The notes under the pieces: generated by a model | The model's database searches: none | What the model saw: the letters and a program-made list of their open reading frames with translations, nothing else | What the model was told of the DNA's origin: nothing | Program-made: the position numbers and the translations under genes | DNA from: Gammaproteobacteria bacterium | Lineage (GTDB): Bacteria; Pseudomonadota; Gammaproteobacteria; Eutrophobiales; Eutrophobiaceae | NCBI GenBank assembly: GCA_028819495.1 | Contig: JAPPLI010000130.1 | Span: 28,649-92,648 of the forward strand | Direction: 5' to 3' | DNA: 64,000 nucleotides | In this document: one piece after another, positions 4,021-51,502 of the stretch | Numbering within the stretch: position 1 is the first letter of the stretch | How the letters are laid out: each line of letters opens with the position of its first letter

Positions 4021-4062
4021 GGGGTCAGAGTAAGAAATTCGAAGAATTTTTACTCTGACCCC
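4021..4062. repeat. Type-1 palindromic repeat (GGGGTCAGAGTAA...TTACTCTGACCCC)
   Basis: ggggtcagagtaagaaattcgaagaatttttactctgacccc, identical to the copy at 4633-4674. Confidence 0.9.
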
Positions 4063-4103: not shown

Positions 4104-4613
4104 ATGACCAGTCGATATAAACCCGATGAGATCAACAACATGGACCGCCAAGCCTTCCTCGCCGCCTTCGGCGCGGTATTCGAAGCGTCCCCCTGGGCAG
4201 CCGAGGCAGCCTGGCAGTCCCGCCCGTTCAGGAACACGGCGCACGTGGCCGAAGCGCTGTTCGAAGCCGTCCGCAGCGCAGGCCCGGAGCGGCAACTGGC
4301 CCTGTTGCAGGCACATCCGGAACTGGGCGCCAGGAAGCCCCTGGCGGCATTCTCCGCACGCGAACAGGCCGGCGCCGGCCTGCAACGGGAGCAGGACGAC
4401 CAAAGTGCCCTGCTGACGGACCTGAACCGGCGCTACCGGGAGAAATTCGGTTTCCCGTTCATCCTGGCCGTGAAAGGCATTAACCCGGATAAAATAATCA
4501 CGCGATTCCGCGAGCGCCTGGAAAACGACCCGGAACACGAGTTCAACGAATGCCTGGAGCAGGTCTTCCGCATCGCCGCCTACCGTCTCGAAGACTTATT
4601 GGGATCAGAGTAA
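4104..4613 (+). CDS. uraD: 2-oxo-4-hydroxy-4-carboxy-5-ureidoimidazoline (OHCU) decarboxylase
   Basis: 169 aa. FEASPWAAE...LLQAHPELG...YREKFGFPFILAVKG match OHCU decarboxylase motifs. The last codons GSE-stop lie in a degenerate type-1 repeat half-site (4601-4619). Confidence 0.85.
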   Translation: MTSRYKPDEINNMDRQAFLAAFGAVFEASPWAAEAAWQSRPFRNTAHVAEALFEAVRSAGPERQLALLQAHPELGARKPLAAFSAREQAGAGLQREQDDQSALLTDLNRRYREKFGFPFILAVKGINPDKIITRFRERLENDPEHEFNECLEQVFRIAAYRLEDLLGSE

Positions 4614-4632
4614 AAATTTCAGCCGTCAACTC

Positions 4633-4674
4633 GGGGTCAGAGTAAGAAATTCGAAGAATTTTTACTCTGACCCC
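4633..4674. repeat. Type-1 palindromic repeat
   Basis: Identical 42-bp copy of 4021-4062. Marks the left edge of the AT-rich accessory block. Confidence 0.9.
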
Positions 4675-4687: not shown

Positions 4688-5305
4688 TCACCCTTTAGTC
4701 ATCCGTTGCCCCTGTAAGTCATAAGCGCACCCGATTATACTTGTCGCGGATTCAAACAGGTCGTTTCCCGATAAGCCGGTCGACTTCAACAGGCGCTGTT
4801 CAAACGCTTCATTGGTTTCAATGCTCCCGTCCCCCCGGATATGCAGGATGGAAGCGACGCGCTGTCGCAGGTGGCGACAAATCAGAATCGTTCTGTGACA
4901 TGTCAGTGGGTCTTCCTCTGCGCACAGCAGGGCAGGCCTGGCTTGACTGGACTTGTCGATTATCCGGTCCAGCGCATCCGCAAACTCCGGTCTGGCAGCG
5001 ATCAAATCATATGATACTTTTCCATTGATGTAGCAATCGGGATCCGGGCTTTTGGCGCCCAGTTCCTTTCCGGAAAAGACGTAATCGATTCCCTTATTCC
5101 TTAACCTCTCGGCAAGCGCCTTCTGACGGAACTGCGGATTTCGCCTACTGTATGGAATGGAACGGACATCAAATACCAGAGAAACAGAAGCCTCTTTCAG
5201 TAACTTGACAAAGTGTTCGATGGGATGCCTGGAATGCCCTACGGTATACAGGACTTTTTCGTTATCGGCCTTTTGCAGGTTTGGCATCACGGAATTTACA
5301 GGCAA
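4688..5305 (-). CDS. DUF488 family protein
   Basis: LYTVGHS...FDVRS.P.SRRNPQF...LLCAEEDPLTCHR is the DUF488 signature as I remember it. The start may instead be the second Met (MPNLQK). Confidence 0.65.
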   Translation of the reverse strand: MPVNSVMPNLQKADNEKVLYTVGHSRHPIEHFVKLLKEASVSLVFDVRSIPYSRRNPQFRQKALAERLRNKGIDYVFSGKELGAKSPDPDCYINGKVSYDLIAARPEFADALDRIIDKSSQARPALLCAEEDPLTCHRTILICRHLRQRVASILHIRGDGSIETNEAFEQRLLKSTGLSGNDLFESATSIIGCAYDLQGQRMTKG

Positions 5306-5501
5306 TATCTAATGTTATAATTATCAGTCACAATGGTATCAAAGCTACAGGAATTGTTCATATTGTCGTAACAAGCATTTGTGTTTCAGTCAGTTTCGTC
5401 GCGAATAGGTAATTCAAAAAATATTTTCTGAAATCATCCAGAAAATTTAATGAAGCCTGCCCACGTATTCGACAATAATAAGCGCAGACAAAATATATCG
5501 T

Positions 5502-8270
5502 ATGACAAAGGCTAATCAGACACCGGAACAGGCGGCTCGGGACAATATCGACAATGTGCTGACTCTAGCAGGTTGGTCTGTTCAGGATAAAAAGAAGATT
5601 AACTTCGCTGCAGGACTGGGAATCGCGGTTCGCGAATACGATACTGATGTAGGCCCTGCAGATTACGTTCTGTTTGTTGATAAGGTTGCAGTTGGAGTCA
5701 TAGAAGCTAAACCCGAAAGCTACGGCTACAAACTGACACAGGTCGAAGGTCAATCAGGGGGCTACGCAGCCGCCAAGCTCAAGTGGGTCAACAACGAACA
5801 ACCTCTTCCGTTTGTTTACGAAAGTACAGGTATCATCACCAGGTTCACCAACGGCAGAGATCCTGCGCCCCGTTCTCGTGAGATTTTTAACTTTCCTCGT
5901 CCGGAAACGATGCGGGAATGGTTGTCCAAGCCTGCGTCGTTACGTTCTCGGGTGCAAACCATTCCTCCACTTCTGCACGCAGGTTTACGAGAGTGCCAGA
6001 TTACTGCCATTGAGAACCTGGAGGCATCGTTCAAGAATGATCACCCGCGCGCCCTAATTCAGATGGCCACAGGATCTGGCAAGACCTATGCAGCCATTAC
6101 ATCGGTTTATCGACTTCTGAAACACGCTGATGCCAAACGCGTTCTCTTTCTGGTAGATACCAAGAACCTGGGGGAACAGGCAGAGCAGGAATTCATGGCT
6201 TTTGTGCCGAACGACGGTAACCGTAAATTTACCGAACTCTACAATGTGCAACGTCTTAAATCGTCATTCGTCGCAAAAGACATCCAGGTTTGTATCAGCA
6301 CAATTCAGCGAATGTATTCGCTTCTGAAAGACGAAGACCTTGATGAGTTCGCCGAAGAAACCAATCCCGCGGAAGGCATACTGCAACTGAAAGAACCGGT
6401 CCCAGTTGCCTATAATCCGAGGATCCCGCCGGAGTTTTTCGATTTCATCATAATTGATGAATGTCATCGTTCCATTTATAACCTGTGGCGGCAAGTGCTT
6501 GAGTATTTTGATGCTTACCTGATCGGCCTGACGGCTACACCCGATAATCGAACATACGGGTTCTTCCGTAAGAATGTCGTCAGCGAGTACGACCATGAAA
6601 AAGCAGTCGCAGATGGTGTGAATGTCGGCAACGAGGTGTACGTTATTGAAACCGAACGCACCCGGCAAGGAGGTAAGCTCAGTATCGGTCAGTTGGTTGA
6701 ACGGCGGGAAAAATTATCGCGCGCCCGGCGCTGGGAGCGCCAGGACGAAGATGAGACATATACTGCTAAACAACTCGACCGCGATATCGTCAATCCCGAC
6801 CAGATTCGTACGGTCATTCGTACTTTTTGCGAGAAGTTGCCGGAGATATTTCCTGGTCGTGGGGAAATCCCGAAAACCCTCATCTTTGCCAAGACCGACA
6901 GCCACGCGGACGACATCATCCAGACAGTGCGTGAAGAATTCGGACAAGGCAATGAGTTTTGCAAGAAGGTAACTTATGGCTCAAAAGAGGATCCGAAGTC
7001 TGTTCTTGCTCAGTTTCGTAATGACTACAACCCGCGTATTACCGTGACGGTTGACATGATTGCTACCGGAACGGACGTAAGGCCACTCGAATGTCTCCTG
7101 TTCATGCGCGACGTGAAAAGTCGCAACTATTTCGAGCAGATGAAAGGACGCGGCACACGAACATTGGATCATGACGAGCTAAAAAAGGTTTCACCGTCTG
7201 CAACAAGCGCAAAGACGCACTACGTAATCGTTGATGCTGTTGGCGTGACCAAGTCCTTGAAAACGTCAAGCCAGCCTTTAGTTACCAAACACTCCATGTC
7301 ACTCAGGGATCTGGCAACCAGTGTCATGATGGGCGTCCGTGACGAAAATTATGTAAGTTCCCTTGCCGGACGCTTGGCCCGTCTTAATAAACAACTTGAT
7401 GAAAAGGAACAGAACCGGATAAAGGAGAAAGCTGGCGGTGTGTATCTCAAGGATATTGTACGCAGCCTGCTTGATGCCATCGACCCAGATAATATCCAGA
7501 TAAAGGTAGATGAACTTGAAAGCCTGCCGGCAATTGCAGAACCGGGAAAAGATATGCACCGGTTGGCTCAAGATAAGTTGGTTAGCGAAGCCGCCAGCAT
7601 TTTTAATGGCGAACTGATAAGCCTGCTCGATGGCATTCGGCGCGAGAAAGAACAGACCATCGATCACGAAGGTATTGATACCGTACTTGACACTGGATGG
7701 GCTGGCGATTCTAAAGAAAATGCAAAGCAGATGGTCCAGGATTTTAAGGAGTATCTGGAAGCCAACCGGGACCAGATTGAAGCACTTACCATCTTCTATA
7801 GCCAGCCTCATCGACGAAGCGAACTGACCTATACGATGATCCGGGAACTGCTGGATAAGCTGAAAGATGATAAGCCGCTACTGTCTCCGCTTCGGGTCTG
7901 GCGTGCCTATGCACTGCTGGATGAGTATAAGGGGAATGATCCAGTGACAGAATTGACTGCTCTTGTTGCATTAATCAGGCGAGTTTGTGGGATAGACAAG
8001 ACGCTCATGCCGTATGCGGATACGGTAAGGAAAAACTTCCAGGACTGGATTATGAAGCACCATAGTGGCAGTGGTGAGAAATTCAACGAAGAGCAAATGG
8101 ACTGGTTACGGATGATGCGCGAACACGTCATCACATCTTTTCATATTGAACGTGATGATTTTGAGATGGCGCCATTTGATGCCCGGGGTGGCCTGGGGCG
8201 TATGTATCAGCTTTTTGGAGATCAGATGGATGCTGTAATTCATGAATTGAATGATGCACTGGCGGCGTAG
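5502..8270 (+). CDS. hsdR: Type I restriction enzyme R subunit
   Basis: 922 aa. N-terminal nuclease-like PADYVLF...GVIEAKPES; SF2 motifs QMATGSGKT and IIIDECHRS; C-terminal GGLGRMYQLFG tail as in EcoEI/EcoAI-type R subunits. Confidence 0.9.
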   Translation: MTKANQTPEQAARDNIDNVLTLAGWSVQDKKKINFAAGLGIAVREYDTDVGPADYVLFVDKVAVGVIEAKPESYGYKLTQVEGQSGGYAAAKLKWVNNEQPLPFVYESTGIITRFTNGRDPAPRSREIFNFPRPETMREWLSKPASLRSRVQTIPPLLHAGLRECQITAIENLEASFKNDHPRALIQMATGSGKTYAAITSVYRLLKHADAKRVLFLVDTKNLGEQAEQEFMAFVPNDGNRKFTELYNVQRLKSSFVAKDIQVCISTIQRMYSLLKDEDLDEFAEETNPAEGILQLKEPVPVAYNPRIPPEFFDFIIIDECHRSIYNLWRQVLEYFDAYLIGLTATPDNRTYGFFRKNVVSEYDHEKAVADGVNVGNEVYVIETERTRQGGKLSIGQLVERREKLSRARRWERQDEDETYTAKQLDRDIVNPDQIRTVIRTFCEKLPEIFPGRGEIPKTLIFAKTDSHADDIIQTVREEFGQGNEFCKKVTYGSKEDPKSVLAQFRNDYNPRITVTVDMIATGTDVRPLECLLFMRDVKSRNYFEQMKGRGTRTLDHDELKKVSPSATSAKTHYVIVDAVGVTKSLKTSSQPLVTKHSMSLRDLATSVMMGVRDENYVSSLAGRLARLNKQLDEKEQNRIKEKAGGVYLKDIVRSLLDAIDPDNIQIKVDELESLPAIAEPGKDMHRLAQDKLVSEAASIFNGELISLLDGIRREKEQTIDHEGIDTVLDTGWAGDSKENAKQMVQDFKEYLEANRDQIEALTIFYSQPHRRSELTYTMIRELLDKLKDDKPLLSPLRVWRAYALLDEYKGNDPVTELTALVALIRRVCGIDKTLMPYADTVRKNFQDWIMKHHSGSGEKFNEEQMDWLRMMREHVITSFHIERDDFEMAPFDARGGLGRMYQLFGDQMDAVIHELNDALAA

Positions 8271-8271
8271 C

Positions 8272-9855
8272 ATGTATGAGAGATCATCCCAACAAATACC
8301 AAAGGGCTGGATAGAAACAACGTTAAATGAAATTGCGTTGTGGGGTTCAGGAGGTACGCCCTCTCGTAAGAATAATAAATTCTACAGGGGTTCTATTCCT
8401 TGGGTTAAGACAGGCGAACTCGGACCAAAATATATACGGTCTGCGCAAGAATATATAACACAAGAAGGTATTCAAAGATCTAGCGCCAAAGTCTTTCCAA
8501 AGGGTTCGGTCGGTATAGCAATGTATGGTGCTACAATTGGAAAGCTATCGATTTGGGGTGCTGATCTCTCAACAAATCAAGCGTGTGCTGTTGCTCAACC
8601 TTGTCTGGAAATACTTAGCTCTGAATTTCTATATTATTTTTTGTTGTCACAAAGGTATGCCTTGATTGAGGCAGGAAAAGGAGGGGCTCAACCGAACATT
8701 TCTCAAGGGCTTTTGAAGGATTGGCCGATTTGTCTACCACCTATTGACGAACAATGTCGGATCGTAGATAAGATAGAAGAACTTTTTTCCGAGTTGGACA
8801 AAGGCATTGAAAGCCTCAAAACTGCCCGTGGACAGCTTAAGGTCTATCGCCAAGCTGTCCTGAAACACGCCTTCGAAGGCAAACTAACGGAGCAGTGGCG
8901 GGAAGAGAATAAGAACAAGCTGGAAACTCCTGAAAGACTACGCACTCGTATCAAAAAAGAGCGTGAGAAGCGTTATCAACAGCAACTTGATCAGTGGAAA
9001 ACTGCTGTCAAGACCTGGGAGGTGGAAGGCAAGAAAGGCAGAAAGCCAAGAAAACCGGGTTTACTTGAACAACCCGAGGTTATCACATCTAACGAAACTA
9101 AATCGCTGCCTAAAATACCCTCCGCTTGGTGCTTTGTCAGACTTTGTGAGATTACAGATATCGGTTCGGGAATGTCAGTTAATAACTCCAGAAAAATTGA
9201 TAATCCTATCAAGGTTCCATATCTTCGTGTAGCAAACGTCCAGAGAGGCTTTTTAGATCTCTCAGAAGTCAAACACATGACAATCGAAATGTCACAGCTA
9301 GATAGTATGGCACTAAAGCAATGGGACATTTTATTTAATGAAGGAGGAGATCGTGACAAGCTTGGTAGAGGCTGGATTTGGCAATCCAAAATTATGCCAT
9401 GCATAACACAAAATCATGTTTTTCGAGCCAGCCCATACTTTCCTTCAAAAGAGCACTCCACTCTAATTTCGCATTGGGGGAATACATTCGGTCAACGATA
9501 TTTTGAAGAGATGGGAAAACAAACGACTAATTTAGCGTCTATCAACAAGACTGTATTGAGCGAATTCCCTGTACCACTGATGTCCATAGATGAACAGGAA
9601 GAGATCTGTAAGCAGATTGATAGCATGATGACACTCATAAATGCCCAACTTGACGAAATATCTGCGGTATTGGAGAAGTCTACAACGTTGCGTCAAGCAA
9701 TATTACGAAGCGCTTTTTCAGGCAAACTTATCCCACAAGACCCAAATGACGAACCTGCTTCTATTCTGTTGGAACGGATAAGAGCAGAGAAAACCGAACA
9801 GGAAAAGACGCATGGGAAAAGTAGTAGGAGAAAAACCGGAGAAGTTATTGTATGA
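8272..9855 (+). CDS. hsdS: Type I R-M specificity subunit
   Basis: Two target-recognition domains, each followed by a conserved helix (LPPIDEQCRIVDKIEELFSELDKG and VPLMSIDEQEEICKQIDSMM...LRSAFSGKL). Start taken at the ATG at 8272, 1 nt after the hsdR TAG. Confidence 0.85.
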   Translation: MYERSSQQIPKGWIETTLNEIALWGSGGTPSRKNNKFYRGSIPWVKTGELGPKYIRSAQEYITQEGIQRSSAKVFPKGSVGIAMYGATIGKLSIWGADLSTNQACAVAQPCLEILSSEFLYYFLLSQRYALIEAGKGGAQPNISQGLLKDWPICLPPIDEQCRIVDKIEELFSELDKGIESLKTARGQLKVYRQAVLKHAFEGKLTEQWREENKNKLETPERLRTRIKKEREKRYQQQLDQWKTAVKTWEVEGKKGRKPRKPGLLEQPEVITSNETKSLPKIPSAWCFVRLCEITDIGSGMSVNNSRKIDNPIKVPYLRVANVQRGFLDLSEVKHMTIEMSQLDSMALKQWDILFNEGGDRDKLGRGWIWQSKIMPCITQNHVFRASPYFPSKEHSTLISHWGNTFGQRYFEEMGKQTTNLASINKTVLSEFPVPLMSIDEQEEICKQIDSMMTLINAQLDEISAVLEKSTTLRQAILRSAFSGKLIPQDPNDEPASILLERIRAEKTEQEKTHGKSSRRKTGEVIV

Positions 9856-11342
9856 ATAGCAGTCACATCAGTTCCAAAGTTTGGAGTTTTTGTACGATAC
9901 TAAAGGATGACGGAGTAAGTTACGGAGACTACCTGGAACAACTCACCTATCTGATCTTTCTGAAAATGGCTGACGAATATGCCAAACCCCCATATAACCG
10001 TGATGTAGGTATTCCTGATGATTACAACTGGCAGAACCTTAAAAGCAAACGCGGGGCTGAACTGGAAAGTCACTACATCGAATCTTTACGTGAACTTGGC
10101 CAGAAGACAGGGATGCTGGGGCAGATATTCACCAAGTCGCAAAACAAAATTCAAGACCCGGCCAAGCTTTTTCGTCTGATCGACATGGTGGATGATGTGC
10201 AATGGGTCTCAATGGGAGCGGATGTCAAAGGCGTGATTTATGAAGATTTGCTGGAAAGGAACGCAGAAGATACCAAATCCGGTGCAGGGCAGTATTTTAC
10301 GCCACGCGCACTGATTCGTGCGATGGTCGAATGTGTTCGTCCAGAGCCGGAAAAGACCATCGCCGATCCAGCCTGTGGTACGGGAGGGTTTTTTCTATCC
10401 ACCTATGACTTCATTACCAATCCAGAGCATTACCGGCTCGACAAAAACCAAAAGGAGTTTCTGAAATACGAAACCTTCCACGGAAACGAAATTGTGGCAA
10501 ACACCCGTCGTCTTTGTCTGATGAATATGTTTCTGCATAACATCGGCGAGATTGATGAGGGTGTTTCAATTTCCCCTAATGATGCACTTGTTGCACCCAG
10601 TTCAATCACTTATGACTATGTTCTTGCCAATCCACCCTTTGGCAAGAAGAGCAGCATGACCTTTACCAATGAAGAGGGTGAGCAAGAAACAGACAATCTG
10701 ACTTATAACAGACAGGACTTTTGGGCTTCTACCTCGAATAAGCAGCTCAATTTTGTCCAACACATCCGCACCATGCTTAAGACGACCGGAAAGGCAGCCG
10801 TCGTCGTCCCGGATAATGTTTTATTCGAGGGAGGAGCAGGAGAGACCGTGCGGTGCAAACTTCTGGAGAATACCGATCTTCATACGATCCTGCGTCTGCC
10901 TACCGGTATATTTTATAAGCCTGGTGTGAAGGCCAACGTGATATTTTTTGACAACCGGGAAGCAAGTCCAAATCCCTGGACTAGGGAAGTCTGGTACTAC
11001 GATTATCGTACCAACGTGCATCACACACTCAAGAAAAAGACAATGCGATATGAAGACCTGGCTGAATTTATCGGATGTTACAACCCGATCAACCGGCATG
11101 AACGGAAAGCCACCTGGGATGCTGATAAAAATCCTGAAGGCCGGTGGCATAGATTCAGCTACGATGAATTGATAACACGTGACAAGACAAGCTTGGACAT
11201 ATTCTGGCTAAAAGACAAGAATCTGACGGACCTTGAAAATCTCCCTGACCCTGATGAGCTTGCTGAGGAGATTATAGAAAATTTAGAAGCAGGACTAAGC
11301 AGTTTTCGTGAAGTATTGGCTGGATTAGAGAAAGGCAACTAA
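9852..11342 (+). CDS. hsdM: Type I R-M N6-adenine DNA methyltransferase subunit
   Basis: HsdM N-domain (YLEQLTYLIFLKM), AdoMet motif ADPACGTGGF and catalytic LANPPFGKK. ATGA overlap with the hsdS stop. Confidence 0.9.
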   Translation: MNSSHISSKVWSFCTILKDDGVSYGDYLEQLTYLIFLKMADEYAKPPYNRDVGIPDDYNWQNLKSKRGAELESHYIESLRELGQKTGMLGQIFTKSQNKIQDPAKLFRLIDMVDDVQWVSMGADVKGVIYEDLLERNAEDTKSGAGQYFTPRALIRAMVECVRPEPEKTIADPACGTGGFFLSTYDFITNPEHYRLDKNQKEFLKYETFHGNEIVANTRRLCLMNMFLHNIGEIDEGVSISPNDALVAPSSITYDYVLANPPFGKKSSMTFTNEEGEQETDNLTYNRQDFWASTSNKQLNFVQHIRTMLKTTGKAAVVVPDNVLFEGGAGETVRCKLLENTDLHTILRLPTGIFYKPGVKANVIFFDNREASPNPWTREVWYYDYRTNVHHTLKKKTMRYEDLAEFIGCYNPINRHERKATWDADKNPEGRWHRFSYDELITRDKTSLDIFWLKDKNLTDLENLPDPDELAEEIIENLEAGLSSFREVLAGLEKGN

Positions 11343-13105
11343 TGGAACAGAATGAATTTGTTGGAAAGTATTGTTTACGCCCGCAGAATTTTGCATGGTT
11401 TCTGGGAGCCGGCACATCCCGCGCCGCCGGCCTGCCAACCGCAACTGACATATTGTGGGATATTAAGCGTCGTTACTATTGTCGAGAAGAGAATCAAGAG
11501 ATATCACGTCAAGATATCCAGAATGAATTTGTTAAGGTTCGTATCCAAGATTTCATGGAATCCAAAGGTTTCCCTAAGTTATGGGCAGATAATGAGTATT
11601 CTGCCTATTTCAATAAAATATTTGGAGATGATAAGGAACGGCAACGTAACTACCTACAGGCAATCTTGTCCGAAGACCATGTGTCCCTGTCAGTAGGGAA
11701 TAGAGTAATGGGAGGTTTACTCTCGTCAGGTCATATTCGGGCTGTATTTACAACAAATTTTGATTCTGTTGTTGAAAAAGCTATAGCTCAAACAGTAGGG
11801 GAATCGTTGTCAGCCTATCATTTAGAAGGTTCAGCATCAGCAAATAACGCTTTGAATAATGAAGAGTACCCTCTCTATGTGAAATTACACGGTGATTTTC
11901 GCTATGAAGCATTGAAAAACCTTCCAGAAGACCTAGAAACACAAAATGAGGAACTTTCTCAGTGTTTCATGAATGCAGCCAATCGATTCGGCTTTATTGT
12001 AATCGGTTATAGCGGACGTGATGTTAGTACTATGGCGCTATTTCGCGATTCTCTGGCTTCAAACAACCCGTTCCCACACGGTCTATATTGGATGGGAATC
12101 AAAGGGGCTCCTATACACCCAGAGGTCAGTGAATTGATGGAGTTAGCGCAAAGTAAAGGTGCACATGCAGACTATGTTGAAATAGAAACATTTGATGCTT
12201 TGATGTTGCGTTTGTGGCGTAATATCGAAGACAAACCGATAGATATAGACAAAAAAATTCGTAGGACCCAGCAGTCAAAAGTGGATATTCCTCTACCGAA
12301 TCCAGGTAAAGCAAATCCAATTATGCGCCTGAATGCCTTACCGGTTTTATCTTTTCCTGAGCAATGCCTGAAACTAACATTTCGAACACCCAAGACATGG
12401 TCGGATTTGAGAAAGGTAGAGAAGGAAACGCCTGGAAATCTGATATTCGTAAAAACAGATGCAGTATGGTGCTGGGGCCTTAAATCCGATGTCAAACAAG
12501 CTTTCCGTGAAGAACTTACATCTGTGGAACAAGTCGATATTCCGAGAGATCTTGCAGCAGTTACCAATCGGCCAATTAAGGGTTTTGTAGAGAAGGCTTT
12601 ATGTATGGCACTTGCACGAAGAAAACCGCTCCTATCCAGATCGACTCGAAATAAAACTTTCCTAATCGCCAATTCGCTTACCGATGATAATAATGCGTTA
12701 CATCCATTGACCGAAATTACCGGTTCGATCTCGGGCATTGTACCGGGTGTATTTACTCCTATTTCTGATGAATATCCACAGGCCGAACAAGTTCGCTGGT
12801 CGGAAGCCGTCCAAGCGTCTCTTGATGTTAAAGACGGTAATCTATGGCTGACACTGAATCCGGATATCTGGATTTGGCCATATAGTGCGCGCGAAATTTC
12901 AGTAGATTTTATGCAAAGAAGACGTAATGATCGGTTTAACAAAAAGTTTAATGACCTAATTAGTACATGGAGCAGAATAATCTTCGGAACAGACGAACTA
13001 AATGTAGAGATTGAGGTATCTAGCTTTGCGGAAGGGAGTGGTGCTCAGAACCCATACTTTCGTCTTGCAAGTCGGACTGCTTTCTCCAAGAAGCTATTGT
13101 CATGA
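11342..13105 (+). CDS. SIR2-APAZ protein (predicted NADase partner of a short Argonaute)
   Basis: 587 aa. SIR2 motifs [18 protein letters not shown] and KLHGDF in the N-terminal half; the C-terminal ~300 aa has no enzyme motif (APAZ-like). Its start overlaps the hsdM stop (TAATG) and its stop overlaps the pAgo start (ATGA). Confidence 0.8.
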
Positions 13106-14514
13106 TAGGACGAGTAAGTGAACTATGTGGTTATACCTCATTGCCAGAGCCAGAACTTTTGTTTAACGATAACGGACGACACAAGCATCCCCTCGTTGGG
13201 TTGATTCAAAATGGCCCATACAGCCTGCAATTCGGAGCACCTAACCAAATTCGATTGGCGCTTCTTGCGCCACGTAATGAGATTAATAAACTTGTAGATC
13301 TTAATACTGAACTTTTGAAGGAAGCAAAGCCAAAAGAAGCGACAAAGTACTATCCAGTTTATCCAGGTTTTAAAGAAGTTTTCAGGATTCCAATCGTAGA
13401 GCAGGATGAGCGATTGGTCTTGTCTTTCCCTGATCAATTAGAAATTCATGCGCGGAGGCGGGAGAAAGTTAAACTCGCCGACGGATTGTTCAACTGTATC
13501 TCACAACTAAAATCGATACGTACCAATTTTGATGTTGCTTTGATTTATTTGCCGGAGAGTTGGGAAGAATGCTTTGAAGACGAAGACTTCGATTTTCACG
13601 ACTATCTTAAGGCCTACTGTGCTCCATCAAATATTCCAATCCAGATTATACGGCAAAAGAGCCTTGACAGAGCATGTCGTGCCAATGTTATGTGGGGCTT
13701 GAGCGTAGCACTGTACGCAAAGGCAGGTGGAATACCATGGAAACTTAGCGGTCTCGGGAGGGACGAGGCGTTTATAGGAATTAGTTATGCCATGAAGTCC
13801 GCATCGGATGGGAATAAGTATACAACGTGTTGTAGCCAAGTATTCTATCCAGATGGTACTGGATTTCGGTTTGTAGCCTATGACACCAGAGAGTTTACCC
13901 AGGATGAACGAGAGAACCCGTACCTTTCTTATTATGAAATGCAATCCGTTTTGTCCCGCAGTCTGGAAATATATCAAAGCGGTCATTTCGGCCGCGTTCC
14001 AAAAAAGGTAACAATTCACAAGAATACCGAGTTTAAAGAAGATGAAATTCTCGGAGCGTTTGATAGCTTTCGTGAAGAAACTGAAGTCGAGCTTGTGCAA
14101 ATTATTAAAAGTATCGATTGGAAAGGGATAAGATTTAACACAGAAAATAGACCAACTCCCCACCAATATCCAGTTGCGCGCGGATCATACTTGCCTATGC
14201 AACCTAATGAAGCATTGTTTTGGTCACAAGGAAGTGTTCAAGGAGTGCATATCGGGAACCCTAGATATAACATTTACAAGGAAGGTAATCTCAAGCCGAC
14301 ACCTTCACCTCTACTCTTACGACGATTTTCAGGTGATGGCGGTTGGCACGAAACCTGCCGCAATATACTCGGGCTTACCAAGATGGACTGGAACAACAAC
14401 ACTCTCTATAAGAAGTTGCCAGTTACGCTCATCTATTCCAAAGCATTTGCCAATATTGTTCAGCAAAATACAAACATGATCGATGAAGTGTACGACTTTA
14501 GAAATTTTATGTAG
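13102..14514 (+). CDS. Short prokaryotic Argonaute (MID-PIWI, catalytically inactive)
   Basis: 470 aa. MID 5'-end pocket pattern DYLKAYC...IQIIRQKS; PIWI hallmark [17 protein letters not shown]. Catalytic positions are substituted (FIGISYA instead of GxD, TIHKNT instead of RDG). Confidence 0.8.
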
Positions 14515-14615
14515 CGTTCTATTCGTTTAAAGGCAGGAGAGGTTTTTTCGAACTAAAGCTTCTCTTTAGATTAAGGAGCCTCAACTATAATTGAAAAAAA
14601 CACCCTCGCTTGGCA

Positions 14616-14644
14616 TTGACAAACCATAAAATGTAAACTACAGT
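14616..14644 (+). promoter_or_regulatory. Putative sigma70 promoter of the HigBA-like pair
   Basis: TTGACA (14616-14621), a 17-nt spacer, then TACAGT (14639-14644). This implies a very short or absent leader before the ATG at 14654. Confidence 0.35.
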
Positions 14645-14653
14645 TCACATATA

Positions 14654-14947
14654 ATGGAGATTCGCAAAACGGAAATTTTTGTCGAGTGGCTTGACAATTT
14701 AAGGGACAGCAGGGCTAGAACCCGCATTATTGCCAGACTCGACAGAATGGAAATGGGCAATTTTGGTGATGTGCGGCCTGTTGGTGGCGGTGTTTACGAG
14801 TTACGTATCCATTACGGCCCAGGCTACAGAGTCTATTTTGTCCGATGCGGCCCTGCCGTTGTCATACTTCTTTGTGGCGGCGACAAGAAAACGCAACATG
14901 CAGATATCGCAAAGGCTATAAAGTTAGCCGATAAACTGGAGGACTGA
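14654..14947 (+). CDS. Type II toxin, RelE/ParE superfamily (HigB-like addiction module killer)
   Basis: 97 aa. GGGVYELRIHYGPGYRVYF core; the toxin gene precedes the antitoxin, as in HigBA. Confidence 0.8.
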   Translation: MEIRKTEIFVEWLDNLRDSRARTRIIARLDRMEMGNFGDVRPVGGGVYELRIHYGPGYRVYFVRCGPAVVILLCGGDKKTQHADIAKAIKLADKLED

Positions 14948-14950
14948 GGC

Positions 14951-15244
14951 ATGGCCCTTGCAACAACCCGCTGGGATTCAGCAGAACATCTCAAAACCGA
15001 AGAAGATATCCGGCTTTACCTGGAAGCCTGTCTTGAAGAAGCAGGGGATGACCCTGCATTCATAGTGCACGCCTTGAGTGTTGTTGCCCGTGCGCGCAAT
15101 ATGAGCCAGTTGGCCAGGGAAACAGGTCTGACCCGAGAGGGTCTGTATAAGGCATTGTCAGGTGATGGAAATCCAACTTTTGCCAACGTAGCAAAGGTGG
15201 CAAAAGCCCTTGGATTCAAACTGACCATACAACCCGTGCTTTGA
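14951..15244 (+). CDS. HigA-family HTH antitoxin (addiction module antidote)
   Basis: 97 aa. HTH MSQLARETGLTREGLYKALSGDGNPTFANVAKVAKALG. Starts 3 nt after the toxin stop. Confidence 0.8.
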   Translation: MALATTRWDSAEHLKTEEDIRLYLEACLEEAGDDPAFIVHALSVVARARNMSQLARETGLTREGLYKALSGDGNPTFANVAKVAKALGFKLTIQPVL

Positions 15245-15252
15245 GAGATAGG

Positions 15253-15345
15253 CACAGCTTACGGCTTTTCCAGGAGATAATTGGTCGTCCTGATGAATAC
15301 GAGGACCACCATATCGCTCAGTCGCTCACCGTGCGGTGCATCCAC
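15253..15345 (-). pseudogene. Relic of the 3' end of an S9 (DPP-IV-like) peptidase gene
   Basis: The minus strand translates to ...PLGVDAPHGERLSDMVVLVFIRTTNYLLEKP-stop. It aligns with the C-terminus of the intact peptidase (…QRHDLDDVRPHLFTRITDYFLEKL-stop, ending at 16557). The first ~40 nt are also similar at the DNA level (agcttac.gctt.tccagga.ataat). Confidence 0.5.
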
Positions 15346-15370
15346 ACCAAGCGGTTATTTCTTAAAATTA

Positions 15371-15400
15371 ATTTTACATTTAGACGGATAAATGTAAAAT
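15371..15400. promoter_or_regulatory. Perfect 12-bp inverted repeat (operator-like) just upstream of the ATPase gene
   Basis: ATTTTACATTTA-gacgga-TAAATGTAAAAT, ending 6 nt before the ATG at 15407. Confidence 0.5.
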
Positions 15401-15406
15401 ATAAAT

Positions 15407-16555
15407 ATGATTAAGCGAAATATATGGTTAAAGCAGCTTGAGAATGGCTGGTCTCGTCGTTCTATTGTGTGGCTATCCGGTGTACGGCGGGTGGGTAAGA
15501 CAACACTTGCAAGGATGCTGCCCGATGCATTCTACCTGAATTGTGACCTGCCTTCTGTGCACAGGACCCTGGAAGAACCGGAGTTGTTTCTTGATAGCCA
15601 GGCTCCTGACCGGGTATTGATTCTTGACGAGGTGCATCGCCTTGATGATCCGAGCAGGTTGCTGAAGATCGCTGCTGATGAATATCCGCATTTGCGGATA
15701 CTGGCCACGGGCTCCTCCACCCTGGCAGCAACCCGCAAGTTCCGTGACTCGCTCACCGGGCGCAAACAGGCCATCCATCTCTGTCCGGTATTGTGGGAAG
15801 AGTGCGAAGATTCCTTCGCTGTTCGCGACCTGGACCGGCGTTTGCTGTCCGGCGGTTTGCCCGAAGCATTGCTGGCAGCCGGCAAGGATCCTGCCTTTTT
15901 CAATGAGTGGCTTGACAGTTTCTACGCCCGGGACATTCTGGAACTGTTCGGGATACGTAATCGCCGGGGATTCCTGTCCCTGTTCAGGCTCCTGCTGCGC
16001 CAGAGCGGAGGGCAATTGGACTACGGCCGTCTGTCGAGCCTGAGCGAACAAAGCAGGCCCACGGTCAAATCACACGTTGAAGCCTTGCAGGTTGCCCACG
16101 CGGTGTTCCTGTTACCCCCTTTTCACGGCGGGGGCAAACGCGAGATAGTCAGCCGTCCGAAGTGTTATGCTTTCGATACCGGGTTCGTCACCTTTGAAAA
16201 AGGCTGGGACAACATCAGGGAGGACGATCGCGGCCTGCTGTGGGAACACCTGGTACTGGATGCCCTGCGTTTTCAACACGCTGATAAAGATATATTCTAC
16301 TGGCAGGATAAATCACGCCGCGAGGTGGATTTTGTGGTCCGGCGCACTCGTGACCGGGTAGACGCAATTGAATGCAAAATCAACCCTGACAGGTTCAATA
16401 CCGTCTCTGTTGAAACATTCCGATCCATATACCCTCACGGCGAAAACTATATTGTCTCACCCCACCTGAAAAGCGCCTATCGCATACGCCGGAACGACAT
16501 CATCTATACCGTGTGTACGGTTAAGGACTTAATACGGCTGCAAAGCGCAGAATAG
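15407..16555 (+). CDS. AAA-type ATPase with C-terminal DUF4143 (PD-(D/E)xK-like) domain
   Basis: Walker A GVRRVGKTT, Walker B LILDEVH, and C-terminal EVDFVV...DAIECK nuclease-fold-like motif. Its stop is 1 nt from the convergent peptidase stop. Confidence 0.75.
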   Translation: MIKRNIWLKQLENGWSRRSIVWLSGVRRVGKTTLARMLPDAFYLNCDLPSVHRTLEEPELFLDSQAPDRVLILDEVHRLDDPSRLLKIAADEYPHLRILATGSSTLAATRKFRDSLTGRKQAIHLCPVLWEECEDSFAVRDLDRRLLSGGLPEALLAAGKDPAFFNEWLDSFYARDILELFGIRNRRGFLSLFRLLLRQSGGQLDYGRLSSLSEQSRPTVKSHVEALQVAHAVFLLPPFHGGGKREIVSRPKCYAFDTGFVTFEKGWDNIREDDRGLLWEHLVLDALRFQHADKDIFYWQDKSRREVDFVVRRTRDRVDAIECKINPDRFNTVSVETFRSIYPHGENYIVSPHLKSAYRIRRNDIIYTVCTVKDLIRLQSAE

Positions 16556-19663: not shown

Positions 19664-20854
19664 TTATTTCTTCCACAGGGTTACTTTGAAATAATCTTCA
19701 GTTGCTTCAAAATCCGGTTCCGTGCCGTTGTGTTTTTTCATCAAGGGTATAACTTTCTGGCGGATACCCATTCCCTGGTGTTCTACGTAACCATAGTCCC
19801 TGAATATTCTGGTAGTATGAGGATTACGTTGAATTGTCACGCCATTTTTCATCTTTTCGACTGTCATCCCATTTGGTAAGGAACCAGGACTAACGATTTC
19901 AAGACGGTCAGAGTACGCAACCACGCGCACATAATCCTGTTTAGTCCAGTCTCGATGGACCAGCGCATTTATCAAGAGCTCTCTGACTGTTTCTTCAGGG
20001 TAATCCCACATTCGTCTGCGCGTCATTCCCTCTAGCTGTTCACGACTGATGTATTCTTTTATTTGTGGGTTTCCGTGCAGTGGAGGTTCAACGGGTTCAT
20101 TGTTTTGGAGGTCTCCCCGGTATTCCATTAAGGGCAGGTTGAAGATTTTGTCAAACCTGGAACTGTAGTCCTTATCTGCTCCTTCATATACGGTCAGTCT
20201 TAACCCGGCTTGCGGCAGTCTTAGTTGCGGTGATCTGGCAAATAAAGCGTAGGCGAAATAACTGCAAAAGAGGCTAGTGTGTTCACCCACCAGGAAACTG
20301 TGATCTGCCAGCAGGCCTTGTACATCAGTTTGCTGATGCCGCAGAATTCTCTTGAAATACTCGTTATAACGCCGCTCATCCAGATCTGCGAGTGAGGAAC
20401 CATAAACGGGTAATTTCTCTGCTGACAGCAATCCCCCCGTATCAAATAACCTAGCTTGCTGTTCGCGCCCGGCTAACTGACAAGTATCGCCGTAGCGCAC
20501 GTAGATATCTTCACGGTCATTATGTCGAAGCACATAAGGCTTACCGGTACCCTGGTGAATTTTGACGACTGCCACTCTATATTCATCAACAGCTACTTCT
20601 TCATAATCCGGCAAGACAAAGGGATGCACGTGTCTACCAATCACCGTATCCATCAGCCATGCCTGAAGATTTTCCCTGTGAATGCCAGTTATAAGACCAT
20701 CATTTTCGACACCAACCAATATAGTTCCGCCGTTCATGTTGGCAAAGGCAACAATTTCCTTTGCCATTGTTTCGGGACGTACGTCATCCCGTTTGAAATC
20801 CAGCTTTGCGCCTTCTTTCTGGTTGAGAAGGGTCAATAGTTCACTTGGTAGCAT
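19664..20854 (-). CDS. AlbA_2 (Schlafen-like) domain protein with a C-terminal HATPase_c_4/wHTH-like region
   Basis: N-terminus EGAKLDFKRD...AKEIVAFANMNGGTILVGVENDG (AlbA_2). C-terminus ELLINALVHRDW...RLEIVSPGSLPNGMT...RNP...IFRDYGYVEHQGMGI. Starts 9 nt downstream of the PHP-ATPase stop. Confidence 0.7.
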   Translation of the reverse strand: MLPSELLTLLNQKEGAKLDFKRDDVRPETMAKEIVAFANMNGGTILVGVENDGLITGIHRENLQAWLMDTVIGRHVHPFVLPDYEEVAVDEYRVAVVKIHQGTGKPYVLRHNDREDIYVRYGDTCQLAGREQQARLFDTGGLLSAEKLPVYGSSLADLDERRYNEYFKRILRHQQTDVQGLLADHSFLVGEHTSLFCSYFAYALFARSPQLRLPQAGLRLTVYEGADKDYSSRFDKIFNLPLMEYRGDLQNNEPVEPPLHGNPQIKEYISREQLEGMTRRRMWDYPEETVRELLINALVHRDWTKQDYVRVVAYSDRLEIVSPGSLPNGMTVEKMKNGVTIQRNPHTTRIFRDYGYVEHQGMGIRQKVIPLMKKHNGTEPDFEATEDYFKVTLWKK

Positions 20855-20863
20855 TAGTTAGCT

Positions 20864-23563: not shown

Positions 23564-23632
23564 GGGGTCAGAGTAAAATGCTTGAGTCCAGCGGCACAAC
23601 CCGCCAGATTGCTTGCATTTTACTCCGACCCC
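23564..23632. repeat. Type-1 palindromic repeat (long-loop variant)
   Basis: ggggtcagagtaaaatgc ...33 nt... gcattttactccgacccc, with one arm mismatch. Confidence 0.85.
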
Positions 23633-29036: not shown

Positions 29037-29146
29037 CGCAGATGAGGAGATAGGTGGGGTCAGAGTAAAATCGCCGAGGACGTGGGCAACAGCAGAGTCG
29101 GTGGTGATTTTACTCTGACCCCGGAATTTTAATCTGCAGATAAATC
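29001..29146. repeat. Composite repeat: type-2 arm, nested type-1 palindrome (29056-29122), truncated type-2 arm
   Basis: tccgcagataaattatccgcagattacgcagattagcgcagatg, then ggggtcagagtaaaatc...gattttactctgacccc, then aatctgcagataaatc. Confidence 0.85.
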
Positions 29147-35239: not shown

Positions 35240-35385
35240 CGCAGATGAAGAGATGGGTGGGGTCAGAGTAAAATCACCCCGGTCCCACCAGTGGCCACGA
35301 TGGTAACGATTTTACTCTGACCCCGGAATTCATTCATAAATCAAAAAAATAATCTGCGTTCATCTGCGTCATCTGCGGATAAATC
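35204..35385. repeat. Composite repeat: type-2 arm, nested type-1 palindrome (35259-35324), type-2 arm
   Basis: Same left arm as 29001-29044; right arm aatctgcgttcatctgcgtcatctgcggataaatc abuts the permease stop. Confidence 0.85.
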
Positions 35386-39700: not shown

Positions 39701-40059
39701 TTCACCAGCGGCGGGGTCGTCACCACGACCTTGCCGAGGTGCCGGGCTGAGCGCATGAACGACAGTGCGGCGCCCGCTTCGGCCAGCGGCCAGCGGCTGT
39801 GTATGATCGGTTTCAGTTCCCCTGAAGAAAGACGCTCCATTATCCCTCTCAGTACCTTTCCGACCCGCGCCGGTTCCGTCTTTTTGAGAACATCCAGTTC
39901 CAGTATATGGTATGGCACGTCCGGTCGCAGGGCCGCCATCTCGTCTTCACTCAGGATGTCCCGCCTGGCCATCTCCACGAAGCGGCCGCCCTGCCTGAGG
40001 CAGGACAGGCTGGTGTCTATGAAGCCTTCCCCTGTCAGGCTGTTCAGCACCACATCCAC
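36733..40059 (-). pseudogene. Type I PKS fragment 4: ER (C-terminal part)-KR-ACP-KS2-linker, no AT
   Basis: Continues the ER after the TAG at 40063-40065 (…ILAATGG-stop-GVDVVLNSLTGEG). KR LVTGGLGGIG (about 39681-39160), but GQANHAAAN instead of YAAAN. ACP FFDLGMDSL (Ser codon about 38749-38751). KS2 about 38499-37240 (IAIIGMACRFPG, NCASS, EAHGAGS, KTNIGHLE). Ends GYPFQRRRYWIE. Confidence 0.85.
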
Positions 40060-40062
40060 ACC

Positions 40063-42153: not shown

Positions 42154-42183
42154 TATCGGAGCCGGTGTTTGGGCCGACTCCGG

Positions 42184-45728: not shown

Positions 45729-45744
45729 TTTTTACTCTGACCCC
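45729..45744. repeat. Type-1 repeat half-site
   Basis: tttttactctgacccc, directly upstream of the hydrolase start. Confidence 0.6.
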
Positions 45745-50824: not shown

Positions 50825-51502
50825 ATGACTGAAGGAAAAAAAATAGCCATTCTCGGCGGTACCGGCAACCTGGGATACGGCCTGGCCTGGCGCTGGGCGC
50901 GGGCCGGGCACGAGGTCATTATCGGTTCAAGGGTTGCGGAGAAGGCGCAGAATGCGGCCTCCGAACTCAACAAGAAGCCCGGCGCCGGTTCCATTACGGG
51001 GACTGATAATCTCAGCGCGACGCGACAGGCGGAAGTCGTGACGCTGACCGTCCCTTTTGCCGCCCATGCAGCCACCCTGGAGAGCATCCTGCCGGGCCTG
51101 AACGGGCAGGTCCTGATAGACACCACGGTGCCCCTCATCCCGCCGAAGGTGGCAGTGGTCCAGTTGCCGGAAGCCGGGAGTGCCGCCGTCATCACGCGCG
51201 AGACAGTGGGTGACCGGGCGAGAGTCACAGCGGCGTACCACAACGTGGCCGCCAACCTGCTGGAACAGGACGTGGAGATAGATTGCGACATCCTGGTGAC
51301 CGGCGACGACCCGGAAACCCGCAGGGAAGTGATGCAACTGGTGGAAGACAGCGGTTGCAGGGCCATCAATGCCGGGAAGCTGGCCAACGCCGCGGCTGCC
51401 GAAGCCCTGACCAGCCTGCTGATCCATATCAACCGGGCTTACAAGACCCCCCATTCCGGCATCCGCATCACCGGCATCGATGAAATTTCGGGGTCAGAGT
51501 AA
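50825..51502 (+). CDS. npdG: NADPH-dependent F420 reductase family protein
   Basis: 225 aa. Rossmann motif IAILGGTGNLGYGLAWRWARAGHEVIIGSR is typical of NpdG/Fno. Its last codons GSE-stop are supplied by a type-1 repeat. Confidence 0.7.
   Translation: MTEGKKIAILGGTGNLGYGLAWRWARAGHEVIIGSRVAEKAQNAASELNKKPGAGSITGTDNLSATRQAEVVTLTVPFAAHAATLESILPGLNGQVLIDTTVPLIPPKVAVVQLPEAGSAAVITRETVGDRARVTAAYHNVAANLLEQDVEIDCDILVTGDDPETRREVMQLVEDSGCRAINAGKLANAAAAEALTSLLIHINRAYKTPHSGIRITGIDEISGSE

Follow-up and report, generated by a model that had tools for sequence, protein, structure and literature searches.

The locus described here raises the question of why a type I restriction-modification (R-M) operon and a two-gene SPARSA pair lie end to end as one uninterrupted block, and whether the two halves work as one system or two. 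Type I R-M systems methylate their own sites and cut unmethylated incoming DNA, and SPARSA systems load small RNA guides, recognise invader DNA and deplete NAD+, so that infection is aborted or plasmid establishment is stopped. A preliminary description of the window, by which we mean the whole 64,000-nt stretch of DNA that was analysed, had offered two explanations: layered defence travelling as one cassette, or functional cross-talk between the halves. Our results favour a model in which the block is a horizontally acquired composite cassette of two autonomous modules, R-M and SPARSA, probably co-transcribed and providing layered defence.

Gene content and junctions

The five genes hsdR, hsdS, hsdM, SIR2-APAZ and short pAgo follow one another head to tail on the + strand. 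Their open reading frames are present as the preliminary description had proposed, and Pfam, PADLOC and NCBIfam profiles bear out its gene calls for all five:

5502..8270, + strand: hsdR, type I restriction subunit, 922 aa (ResIII 1.9e-41; EcoEI_R_C 5.6e-41; PADLOC REase_I 2e-43)
TAG 8268-8270, c 8271, ATG 8272-8274, + strand: hsdR/hsdS junction
8272..9855, + strand: hsdS, specificity subunit, 527 aa (Methylase_S in two stretches; PADLOC Specificity_I 4e-98; full-length matches)
ATGA 9852-9855, + strand: hsdS/hsdM junction, hsdM start overlapping hsdS stop
9852..11342, + strand: hsdM, N6-adenine methyltransferase subunit, 496 aa (N6_Mtase 4e-66; HsdM_N; PADLOC MTase_I 1.4e-188)
TAATG 11340-11344, + strand: hsdM/SIR2-APAZ junction, SIR2-APAZ start overlapping hsdM stop by 1 nt
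11342..13105, + strand: SIR2-APAZ, predicted NADase effector partner of pAgo, 587 aa (PADLOC Aga_SIR2-PNTD1-PNTD2 3.6e-193)
ATGA 13102-13105, + strand: SIR2-APAZ/pAgo junction, pAgo start overlapping SIR2-APAZ stop
13102..14514, + strand: short pAgo, MID-PIWI only (no N or PAZ domain), 470 aa (PADLOC pAgo_I 3.7e-193)

Direct reading of the sequence confirmed all four junctions, as well as the first real gap, which follows pAgo (14515-14653, 139 nt). The block is thus contiguous, with cistrons spaced by -4 to +1 nt; an alternative in-frame ATG for hsdS at 8251 would overlap hsdR by 20 nt. A Shine-Dalgarno-like GGAG lies 10 nt upstream of the hsdM ATG and a Shine-Dalgarno-like GAGAAAGG 6 nt upstream of the SIR2-APAZ ATG, and only weak purine-rich stretches precede the hsdS and pAgo starts. 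The block thus has overlapping or nearly abutting cistrons with such sequences inside the upstream gene, as expected of a polycistronic, translationally coupled operon.

The five predicted proteins retain their catalytic motifs, with residues mapped for HsdR, HsdM and SIR2-APAZ. HsdR comprises ResIII, Helicase_C and an EcoEI_R_C tail in Pfam, and carries a PD-(D/E)xK nuclease motif (D54...E68-A-K70) together with the GSGKT191 and DECH319 motifs of an SF2 ATPase/translocase. HsdM has the AdoMet-binding motif DPACGTG172 and NPPF260, as expected of a gamma-class methyltransferase, and HsdS has two target-recognition domains. These features (HsdR motifs and tail, HsdM NPPF and paired HsdS domains) are shared with type I systems whose HsdR bears EcoEI_R_C, the family IB relatives EcoAI and EcoEI. 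The window differs from these in that its HsdR falls below the NCBIfam equivalog cut-offs (EcoAI, 187 against 550; PRK11448, 369 against 729), and in its R-S-M order, which is the norm for its own family and occurs in most of 80 metagenome loci. As judged from these motifs, hsdR-hsdS-hsdM is predicted to be a complete type I R-M operon of a widespread and highly conserved family.

Sequence alignment places SIR2-APAZ and pAgo as clear relatives of the structurally solved Geobacter sulfurreducens GsSir2/Ago (SPARSA) pair. SIR2-APAZ matches the GsSir2 chains 8jl0/8in8 in the PDB (1.2e-147, residues 3-582), the Gs residues N142, H186 and D230 are matched by its N139, H183 and D227, which do not vary across 18 homologues, and the short pAgo matches GsAgo 8in8_C over its full length (2.1e-176). 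The pair therefore has the Sir2 NADase residues and the MID-PIWI pAgo adjoining and overlapping an APAZ gene that mark SPARSA. Like the Geobacter pair it consists of two overlapping genes, whose products align with the solved chains from end to end, and by homology it would share the same mechanism, in which RNA-guided recognition of invader DNA leads to NAD+ depletion. It differs from that pair in that no intergenic region precedes it, the SIR2-APAZ start lying within the stop codon of hsdM; Zaremba et al. reported that the systems in their study had no further conserved partner in the operon (10.1101/2021.12.14.472599).

Composition and island edges

The composition of the block looks foreign. 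Its GC content is 45.0%, against 58% in both flanks, and GC3 is 0.36-0.52, against 0.73-0.78 in core genes; recounting gave 38.3% for 8281-8340 and 61.7% for 2281-2340, which shows the hand counts of the preliminary description to be exact. The low-GC island extends somewhat beyond the five genes:

4688..5305, - strand: DUF488 gene, PADLOC candidate PDC-M45B (Pfam DUF488 3.5e-21; PADLOC PDC-M45B 1.3e-66)
14654-14947, + strand: HigB-like toxin (TIGR02683 1.2e-39, above cut-off; Pfam Gp49)
14951-15244, + strand: HigA-like antitoxin (TIGR02684 1.7e-34, above cut-off; Pfam dnstrm_HI1420)
15407..16555, + strand: AAA_14/DUF4143 ATPase, PADLOC candidate PDC-S01 (Pfam; PADLOC PDC-S01 3.5e-56)

The DUF488 gene forms the left edge of the island, and a 73% identical copy occupies the same place in locus L084. 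The HigB/HigA-like pair neighbours SPARSA in syntenic relatives too (80-95% identical in L084 and L086). The ATPase gene forms the right edge, and its distant homologues (26-28% identity) are found inside R-M operons of the window's R-M family in L124 and L146.

The cassette in other genomes

The arrangement recurs in independent contigs, and the cassette is therefore not a chance juxtaposition. The five genes occur together in L084-L087, L089 and L090. In three syntenic relatives, identity to the window is 87% for HsdR, 91-93% for HsdM, 86-87% for SIR2-APAZ and 90-94% for pAgo; HsdS is only 37-60% identical in relatives, compared with 87-94% for their other genes, as would be expected if its target-recognition domains had been swapped. 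L084 and L086/L087 retain the five genes at the same chromosomal site, between flanking core genes that are themselves only 71-93% identical. L089 and L090 are much more diverged, with SPARSA proteins 65% identical to those of the window, and lie in integrase-linked islands in different contexts; they nonetheless keep the same gene order, with an hsdM/SIR2-APAZ overlap of TAATG or TGATG and all junctions overlapping or 2 nt apart. L091 has lost SPARSA and kept hsdS and hsdM, its hsdR being split by an insertion sequence.

A metagenome-assembled genome (MAG) could in principle contain a one-off juxtaposition or an assembly chimera, and the window's matches are to MAG and metagenome contigs only. 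However, the identical junction was assembled independently in an NCBI MAG and two Logan assemblies, and diverged versions exist in five further loci (L084, L085, L086/L087, L089 and L090) from other samples. We rejected this reading, whose probability is negligible given that independent assemblies and diverged loci share the junction and the cassette. The presence of the five-gene unit in three syntenic relatives and two distant integrase-linked islands instead agrees with the first of the two earlier proposals, layered defence travelling as one cassette.

Partners of SPARSA and of the R-M family

The pairing of SPARSA with type I R-M is not specific. Direct, co-oriented adjacency was seen in about 7 of the 80 surveyed species, and SPARSA mostly occurs without type I R-M. 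Elsewhere, SPARSA directly follows type II R-M, BREX brxL, AbiEii, Fic, reverse-transcriptase or FRG genes. Systems based on DNA modification make up about half of the partners tightly linked upstream, a share that could reflect selection or only abundance. From the side of the R-M family, none of the 46 further loci whose downstream sequence is long enough carries SPARSA, and in some of them the same 3' position is taken by Gabija (gap 0) or PDC-S06 (gap 3).

Other SPARSA lineages are found immediately after, within or ahead of type I R-M operons of at least three further kinds. Different R-M kinds or layouts occur in L014, L019, L026, L037, L046 and L050, and L028 has a decayed hsdR. Altogether the linkage spans at least four R-M kinds, at least five layouts and, in a neighbour-joining tree, at least five SPARSA clades. 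The gap between SPARSA and type I R-M is 2-7 nt in L019, L026 and L037. Strict embedding between hsd genes was found only in L046 (hsdM-hsdS-SPARSA-AbiEi-like-hsdR); the window's SPARSA comes after all three hsd genes.

Judging from where DNA similarity between SPARSA loci begins and ends, SPARSA is a discrete unit that brings along no upstream sequence. Similarity between the window and L088, a 69% relative without R-M, is confined to 11340-14513; L014 and L037 share 86% identity from the start codon onwards, although the hsdR genes that precede it are unrelated; and similarity between L026 and L017/L021 begins 8 nt upstream of the ATG.

Expression of the block

The preliminary description had held that there is no room for a promoter between hsdM and SIR2-APAZ. 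This stands for the intergenic space only, and a promoter inside hsdM is possible. The promoter-like sites from a consensus scan for promoters and terminators include two outside the genes of the block:

5295..5324, + strand: candidate promoter, TTTACA-18-AATTAT, 9 of 12 consensus matches, within the AT-rich 196 nt that precede hsdR
14616-14644: promoter-like site, TTGACA-17-TACAGT, inside the 14515-14653 gap and just 5' of higB

The first is a weak candidate for the cassette promoter, as such sites are no more frequent in the region than expected by chance (18 found, against 17.6 expected from shuffled sequence), a count that speaks neither for nor against an internal promoter. The scan found no terminator-like site at any of the four junctions, and no convincing intrinsic terminator was found in 14515-14653 (RNA fold z-score -0.8).

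The tight junctions might reflect packing only, with a SPARSA promoter inside the 3' part of hsdM and overlaps that stem from deletion-driven compaction in a defence island and are no sign of co-expression. Promoter-like hexamers do lie within genes, such as TGGACA-17-AAGAAT (11194-11222), some 120 nt ahead of the SIR2-APAZ start; compactness is general among defence islands; and hsdR is often driven by a promoter separate from that of hsdMS in classical type I systems. However, internal promoter-like sites are no commoner than in shuffled sequence, and the 1-nt stop/start overlap is kept in diverged cassettes. In several independent contexts, moreover, SPARSA similarity begins 0-8 nt before the start codon, so those modules would arrive without a promoter. 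Co-orientation is also the rule among systems embedded in type I R-M (96.7% of cases), and the authors of that survey suggest that it may enable co-regulation (Payne 2024, 10.1101/2024.01.29.577857). We therefore consider packing without co-expression doubtful, and favour co-transcription of the composite cassette.

Relation to known systems and functional coupling

The preliminary description knew of no report of such a coupling, but this does not hold, since earlier papers describe R-M/pAgo association, immunity-suicide coupling and systems embedded in type I R-M. pAgo genes were found to be statistically associated with R-M and Abi genes (Makarova 2009, PMC2743648), the immunity-suicide coupling hypothesis was set out in a paper that also noted the linkage of Sir2 enzymes both with type I R-M and with pAgo (Makarova 2012, PMC3506569), and pAgo operons include HsdS, methyltransferase and Res-type orthogroups (Ryazansky 2018, PMC6299218). 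Among the texts that we searched, no paper contains both "SPARSA" and "type I restriction", and none names SPARSA as such cargo. DarTG2 (PMC12255303), TgvAB (10.1101/2024.04.04.588119) and the systems of the guilt-by-embedding survey by Payne resemble the window in that a second defence, independent in mechanism, lies on the same strand, and probably the same transcript, as type I R-M. In these systems, as in the window's family, whose cargo includes Gabija, PDC-S06 and PDC-S01-like genes, the R-M operon is a docking hotspot; the window differs in that its cargo is SPARSA and is terminal rather than embedded.

The closest precedent for a functional link is PrrC in the EcoprrI type Ic R-M system, likewise a suicide effector in a co-oriented string of hsdM, hsdS and hsdR genes whose linkage is conserved across taxa (PMC3506569). 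With its gene between hsdS and hsdR, PrrC binds to the Hsd complex and is almost confined to embedding in type I R-M, whereas the window's SPARSA is appended after the last hsd gene, belongs to a type mostly free of type I R-M elsewhere and has no known Hsd interaction. The cassette follows a pattern already known, in which suicide modules dock onto restriction operons.

By analogy, the Hsd complex might hold or sense SPARSA, whose NADase would be freed when restriction fails or is inhibited (for example, through anti-restriction proteins); alternatively, HsdR translocation and cleavage products might supply pAgo with more targets or guides. Such wiring would be consistent with the PrrC precedent, with the Sir2 enzymes of the immunity-suicide hypothesis, with the origin or persistence of type I R-M linkage in several SPARSA clades, R-M families and gene orders, with the embedding in L046 and narrow gaps in L019, L026 and L037, and with an hsdM/SIR2-APAZ overlap kept down to 65% SPARSA identity. 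Nonetheless, R-M-linked SPARSA proteins equal unlinked ones in length and domains and are polyphyletic, and sister modules lie behind unrelated R-M families (L014 and L037) or have no type I R-M (L017, L021 and L088). Gabija or PDC-S06 can occupy the same docking site, and L091 keeps hsdS and hsdM without SPARSA. GsSir2/Ago expressed alone protects E. coli (10.1101/2021.12.14.472599). Such variable partners argue against an obligate SPARSA-Hsd association, and we consider wiring of the two halves unlikely. The specific cross-talk proposed earlier, with HsdR products feeding pAgo or methylation gating it, found no support.

A broader version would see SPARSA modules as promoterless plug-in suicide cassettes that dock repeatedly at the 3' end or interior of type I and type II R-M and BREX operons and are functionally wired to them, by being expressed in step with R-M induction, by sensing restriction failure in the manner of PrrC or by taking restriction-made DNA ends as targets, so that the whole forms one two-stage immune device. 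We consider this quite unlikely. Still, type I R-M linkage recurs more than simple hitch-hiking would require, and functional synergy therefore has some room.

Model and implications

In the composite-cassette model, a two-gene SPARSA unit would have docked on the 3' end of hsdM, such that the hsdM stop overlaps the SIR2-APAZ start. Judging from gene geometry, transcription of the five genes would start at an hsdR-proximal promoter and their translation would proceed by termination-reinitiation where they overlap, and the suicide module would therefore be made whenever R-M is made. Both modules pair freely with other partners, which suggests that they are autonomous; each would act on its own, with no obligatory biochemical partnership, and the selective benefit would lie in layered immunity, then suicide, moving as one transferable unit.

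The known mechanisms of R-M and SPARSA are unchanged by these results. If the block is one transcription unit, it would be a natural transferable construct that co-expresses a restriction barrier and an Argonaute-guided, NAD+-depleting suicide switch, and a clean model for the immunity-suicide coupling proposed in 2012, in which synergistic and additive protection could be compared. Our work also adds a modest but concrete point to the picture of defence-island assembly: SPARSA moves as an exact pair of genes that repeatedly lands directly behind other defence operons, and the 3' end of the window's R-M family takes SPARSA, Gabija or PDC-S06 as alternative cargo.

Results

In the window, a type I restriction-modification (R-M) system is followed by a SPARSA module (SIR2-APAZ plus short pAgo, an NAD+-depleting suicide pair of the GsSir2/Ago type), together forming a cassette of five ORFs:

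5502-8270, + strand, hsdR
8251/8272-9855 (two candidate starts), + strand, hsdS
9852-11342, + strand, hsdM
11342-13105, + strand, SIR2-APAZ
13102-14514, + strand, pAgo

A preliminary description had read these genes as a coupled operon, and direct reading of the sequence bore out each of its junctions: TAG-c-ATG at hsdR/hsdS (8268-8274), ATGA at hsdS/hsdM (9852-9855), TAATG at hsdM/SIR2-APAZ (11340-11344) and ATGA at SIR2-APAZ/pAgo (13102-13105), with the first true gap following pAgo (14515-14653, 139 nt). Its hand-counted GC values were also exact (38.3% at 8281-8340, 61.7% at 2281-2340); the whole block has 45.0% GC versus 58% in each flank, and a GC3 of 0.36-0.52 versus 0.73-0.78 in core genes. 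Shine-Dalgarno-like sequences precede hsdM (GGAG) and SIR2-APAZ (GAGAAAGG), in each case within the upstream gene. A consensus scan found no terminator-like site at any cassette junction, and a search for an intrinsic terminator 3' of pAgo gave no convincing candidate. The scan found 18 promoter-like sites in the cassette region, with 17.6 expected from shuffled sequence, and thus says neither yes nor no on internal promoters. Judged from sequence, the five genes are likely co-transcribed.

Motifs and alignments suggest that the R-M system and SPARSA are each intact. In HsdR, ResIII, Helicase_C and EcoEI_R_C domains accompany the motifs D54...E68-A-K70, GSGKT191 and DECH319; HsdS matches Methylase_S in two stretches; and HsdM combines HsdM_N and N6_Mtase domains with the motifs DPACGTG172 and NPPF260. 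Because scores against the NCBIfam EcoAI/EcoEI equivalogs fell under their cut-offs, we place the system beside family IB, as an EcoEI_R_C-type relative, and do not assign it to that family. SIR2-APAZ and pAgo match the PADLOC models Aga_SIR2-PNTD1-PNTD2 and pAgo_I (E near 1e-193 for each), and their alignments to the solved Geobacter sulfurreducens Sir2/Ago chains run end to end (1.2e-147 and 2.1e-176). Sir2 residues N139, H183 and D227, which correspond to Gs N142, H186 and D230, are invariant across 18 homologues.

The cassette recurs elsewhere. Identical copies are present in one NCBI MAG and two Logan assemblies, and comparison loci L084-L087, where SIR2-APAZ is 84-87% identical, carry hsdR-hsdS-hsdM-SIR2APAZ-pAgo-higBA at the same chromosomal site as the window. 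In the syntenic relatives, identities are 87% for HsdR, 91-93% for HsdM, 86-87% for SIR2-APAZ and 90-94% for pAgo; HsdS is the outlier at only 37-60%, and flanking core genes are 71-93% identical. Two further loci, L089 and L090, have the same gene order, with every junction overlapping or leaving a 2-nt gap; SPARSA is only 65% and HsdM 81-83% identical to the window. Their surroundings are unlike the window's, with phage-type integrases upstream and Fic or Hachiman genes downstream. In both, the hsdM stop overlaps the SIR2-APAZ start (TAATG and TGATG), the very junction that the preliminary description had proposed seeking in other genomes. Independent assemblies and diverged copies rule out an assembly artefact or a one-off, and the diverged copies in differing surroundings indicate that the cassette is old and mobile. 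A plasmid database gave just four distant SIR2-APAZ matches and thus no evidence for a plasmid-borne cassette. In a test for a separate SPARSA-linked clade within the R-M family, the L089 and L090 HsdR and HsdM proteins proved roughly as near to those of the unlinked loci L093 and L094 as to those of the window; the data therefore fit one ancient fusion or repeated fusions alike. At the syntenic site in L091 (1672-9494) lies a decayed form of the cassette: a DDE_Tnp_1 insertion sequence interrupts hsdR, while hsdS and hsdM are intact, SPARSA and higB have been lost, and an orphan higA-like gene is left.

The cassette lies in a low-GC island of ~4.69 to 16.56 kb, which also holds:

in the island, - strand, DUF488 gene (PDC-M45B, a PADLOC candidate)
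14654-15244, directly 3' of pAgo, HigB/HigA-like toxin-antitoxin pair with promoter-like TTGACA-17-TACAGT ahead
15407-16555, after the HigB/HigA-like pair, AAA_14/DUF4143 ATPase (PDC-S01)

The HigB/HigA-like pair is kept in L084 and L086; the ATPase is present in L086, with only remnants in L084. No integrase was found within the island, and candidate att-like direct repeats around it were only REP-like palindromes. The Rfam scan of the whole window matched a tRNA-Gln alone. To the left of the island are purine-degradation genes (allantoicase, OHCU decarboxylase). Elsewhere the window contains:

19664-23548, - strand, second low-GC insertion (40-46% GC), two genes
36733-43686, - strand, large polyketide-synthase genes (KS, KR, ACP, DH, ER domains)
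4021-4062, 4601-4674, 23564-23632, 29056-29122, 35259-35324, 45732-45744, 51490-51532 and 58273-58315, REP-like element sites

The second insertion, which encodes a 396-aa Schlafen AlbA_2/HATPase_c_4 protein and an 894-aa SMC_N/AAA_23 ATPase (partial PADLOC Ppl match, 9e-35), is probably a further defence island; L084 lacks the segment ~19.64-23.80 kb, with RNase PH directly after yicC at the syntenic locus. The REP-like palindrome (GGGGTCAGAGTAA...TTACTCTGACCCC) occurs at ~8 intergenic sites, with 16 arm matches versus 0.06 expected by chance. Two copies border the outer edges of the two low-GC islands: the first lies immediately left of the DUF488 gene, the second just past the start of the 894-aa gene. 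RND efflux pump genes (25.8-34.5 kb) adjoin the polyketide-synthase genes.

To place the SPARSA half, we surveyed 80 species-representative genomes with SIR2-APAZ 43-61% identical. In seven loci type I R-M genes immediately adjoin SPARSA on the same strand. Three of these (L014, L019 and L026) share one R-M family, and their hsdM-hsdS-hsdR genes precede SPARSA at distances of 32, 5 and 7 nt. SPARSA lies 2 nt behind an R-M system of a different family in L037, precedes hsdM...hsdR in L050, and immediately follows hsdR remnants in L028. In L046 it is embedded between hsdS and hsdR with an AbiEi-like gene, a 204-aa ORF initially considered a resolvase. Four further loci of this survey have hsd-like genes within 10 kb, differently arranged. 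In a neighbour-joining tree of SIR2-APAZ and pAgo, R-M-adjoining loci are spread over at least five clades, and sister SPARSA modules are found behind unrelated R-M families.

Other partners take the same upstream position (same strand, ~0-80 nt before SPARSA; 160 nt in L072): type II R-M genes (L004, overlapping; L045), BREX brxL (L015), AbiEii (L031, L064, L066), Fic (L020, L025, L054), reverse transcriptases (L010, L072) and an FRG protein gene (L041). L069 and L070 each have an upstream ORF of the size of these AbiEii genes.

SPARSA itself has sharp limits. Similarity between the window and L088 (69% identical, no R-M) is confined to 11340-14513, exactly both coding sequences; between L026 and its nearest relatives, L017 and L021, which have no type I R-M, it begins 8 nt before the ATG; and L014 and L037 DNA is 86% identical from the start codon to that of a convergent PDC-S28 helicase gene. 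Because these limits fall at or near SPARSA start codons, SPARSA behaves as a cassette of exactly two genes and moves without its own upstream region. L026, L017 and L021 (9993-15236) represent another SPARSA lineage, with a retron-type RT-Toprim (type I-C) gene directly 3' of SPARSA; DNA identity of this combined module is 84% among genomes with or without upstream type I R-M. The 5.7-kb module of L014, L019 and L037 (~9992-15657) consists of SIR2-APAZ, pAgo and the convergent DEAD/ResIII helicase (PADLOC candidate PDC-S28). Its DNA is 80-86% identical among Iodidimonas (Alphaproteobacteria), a Thermodesulfobacteriota MAG and Chromatocurvus (Gammaproteobacteria), and each of its edges coincides exactly with an outer start codon, a pattern that suggests recent transfer between phyla as a discrete unit. 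The convergent gene (825-951 aa) had been suspected of encoding a Tn3-type transposase because it is 86-92% identical across phyla, but it proved to be the helicase.

The R-M half was surveyed in 80 metagenome loci of the window's family (HsdM 71-83% identical), in which R-S-M is the usual gene order. SPARSA was found in 0 of the 46 loci having at least 1.8 kb of downstream sequence. In some loci, directly after hsdM were Gabija (L102, gap 0), PDC-S06 (L106, gap 3), a phosphoesterase and ankyrin pair (L094) and RtcB (L121). In this family, the hsd 3' end is a docking site for alternative second-line systems. Extra sequence of 1-3 kb separates hsdS from hsdM in many loci (L098, L099, L109 and L119 among them), and a PDC-S01-like AAA ATPase lies between hsdS and hsdM in L124 and between hsdR and hsdS in L146. 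HsdM identity within the family is 81-94% over the best 120 matches, whose sources include several phyla.

Discussion

Of the two readings offered by the preliminary description, layered defence travelling as one cassette is supported, the cassette being conserved and mobile, whereas specific Hsd-SPARSA cross-talk finds no support. The promiscuous pairing of R-M and SPARSA argues against cross-talk as an obligate feature, and GsSir2/Ago is functional alone in E. coli (Zaremba 2022, 10.1101/2021.12.14.472599).

The window cassette is a suicide module attached to type I R-M, an arrangement already known. A statistical association (p = 5e-7) ties pAgo genes to R-M and Abi genes (Makarova 2009, PMC2743648), and pAgo operons include HsdS, SAM-methyltransferase and Res-type orthogroups (Ryazansky 2018, PMC6299218). 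Immunity-suicide coupling was proposed with PrrC-EcoprrI as its paradigm, and Sir2 enzymes were noted to have links to pAgo as well as to type I R-M (Makarova 2012, PMC3506569). Near GsAgo are restriction endonucleases and toxin-antitoxin systems, with no other conserved operon (Zaremba 2022, 10.1101/2021.12.14.472599). Systems embedded in type I R-M are co-oriented in 96.7% of cases (Payne 2024, 10.1101/2024.01.29.577857) and include DarTG2 (PMC12255303) and TgvAB (10.1101/2024.04.04.588119). Within the searchable literature, "SPARSA" and "type I restriction" were not found together in one paper. The useful gains of our study are comparative: SPARSA as an exact two-gene unit, and an hsd 3' end open to alternative systems.
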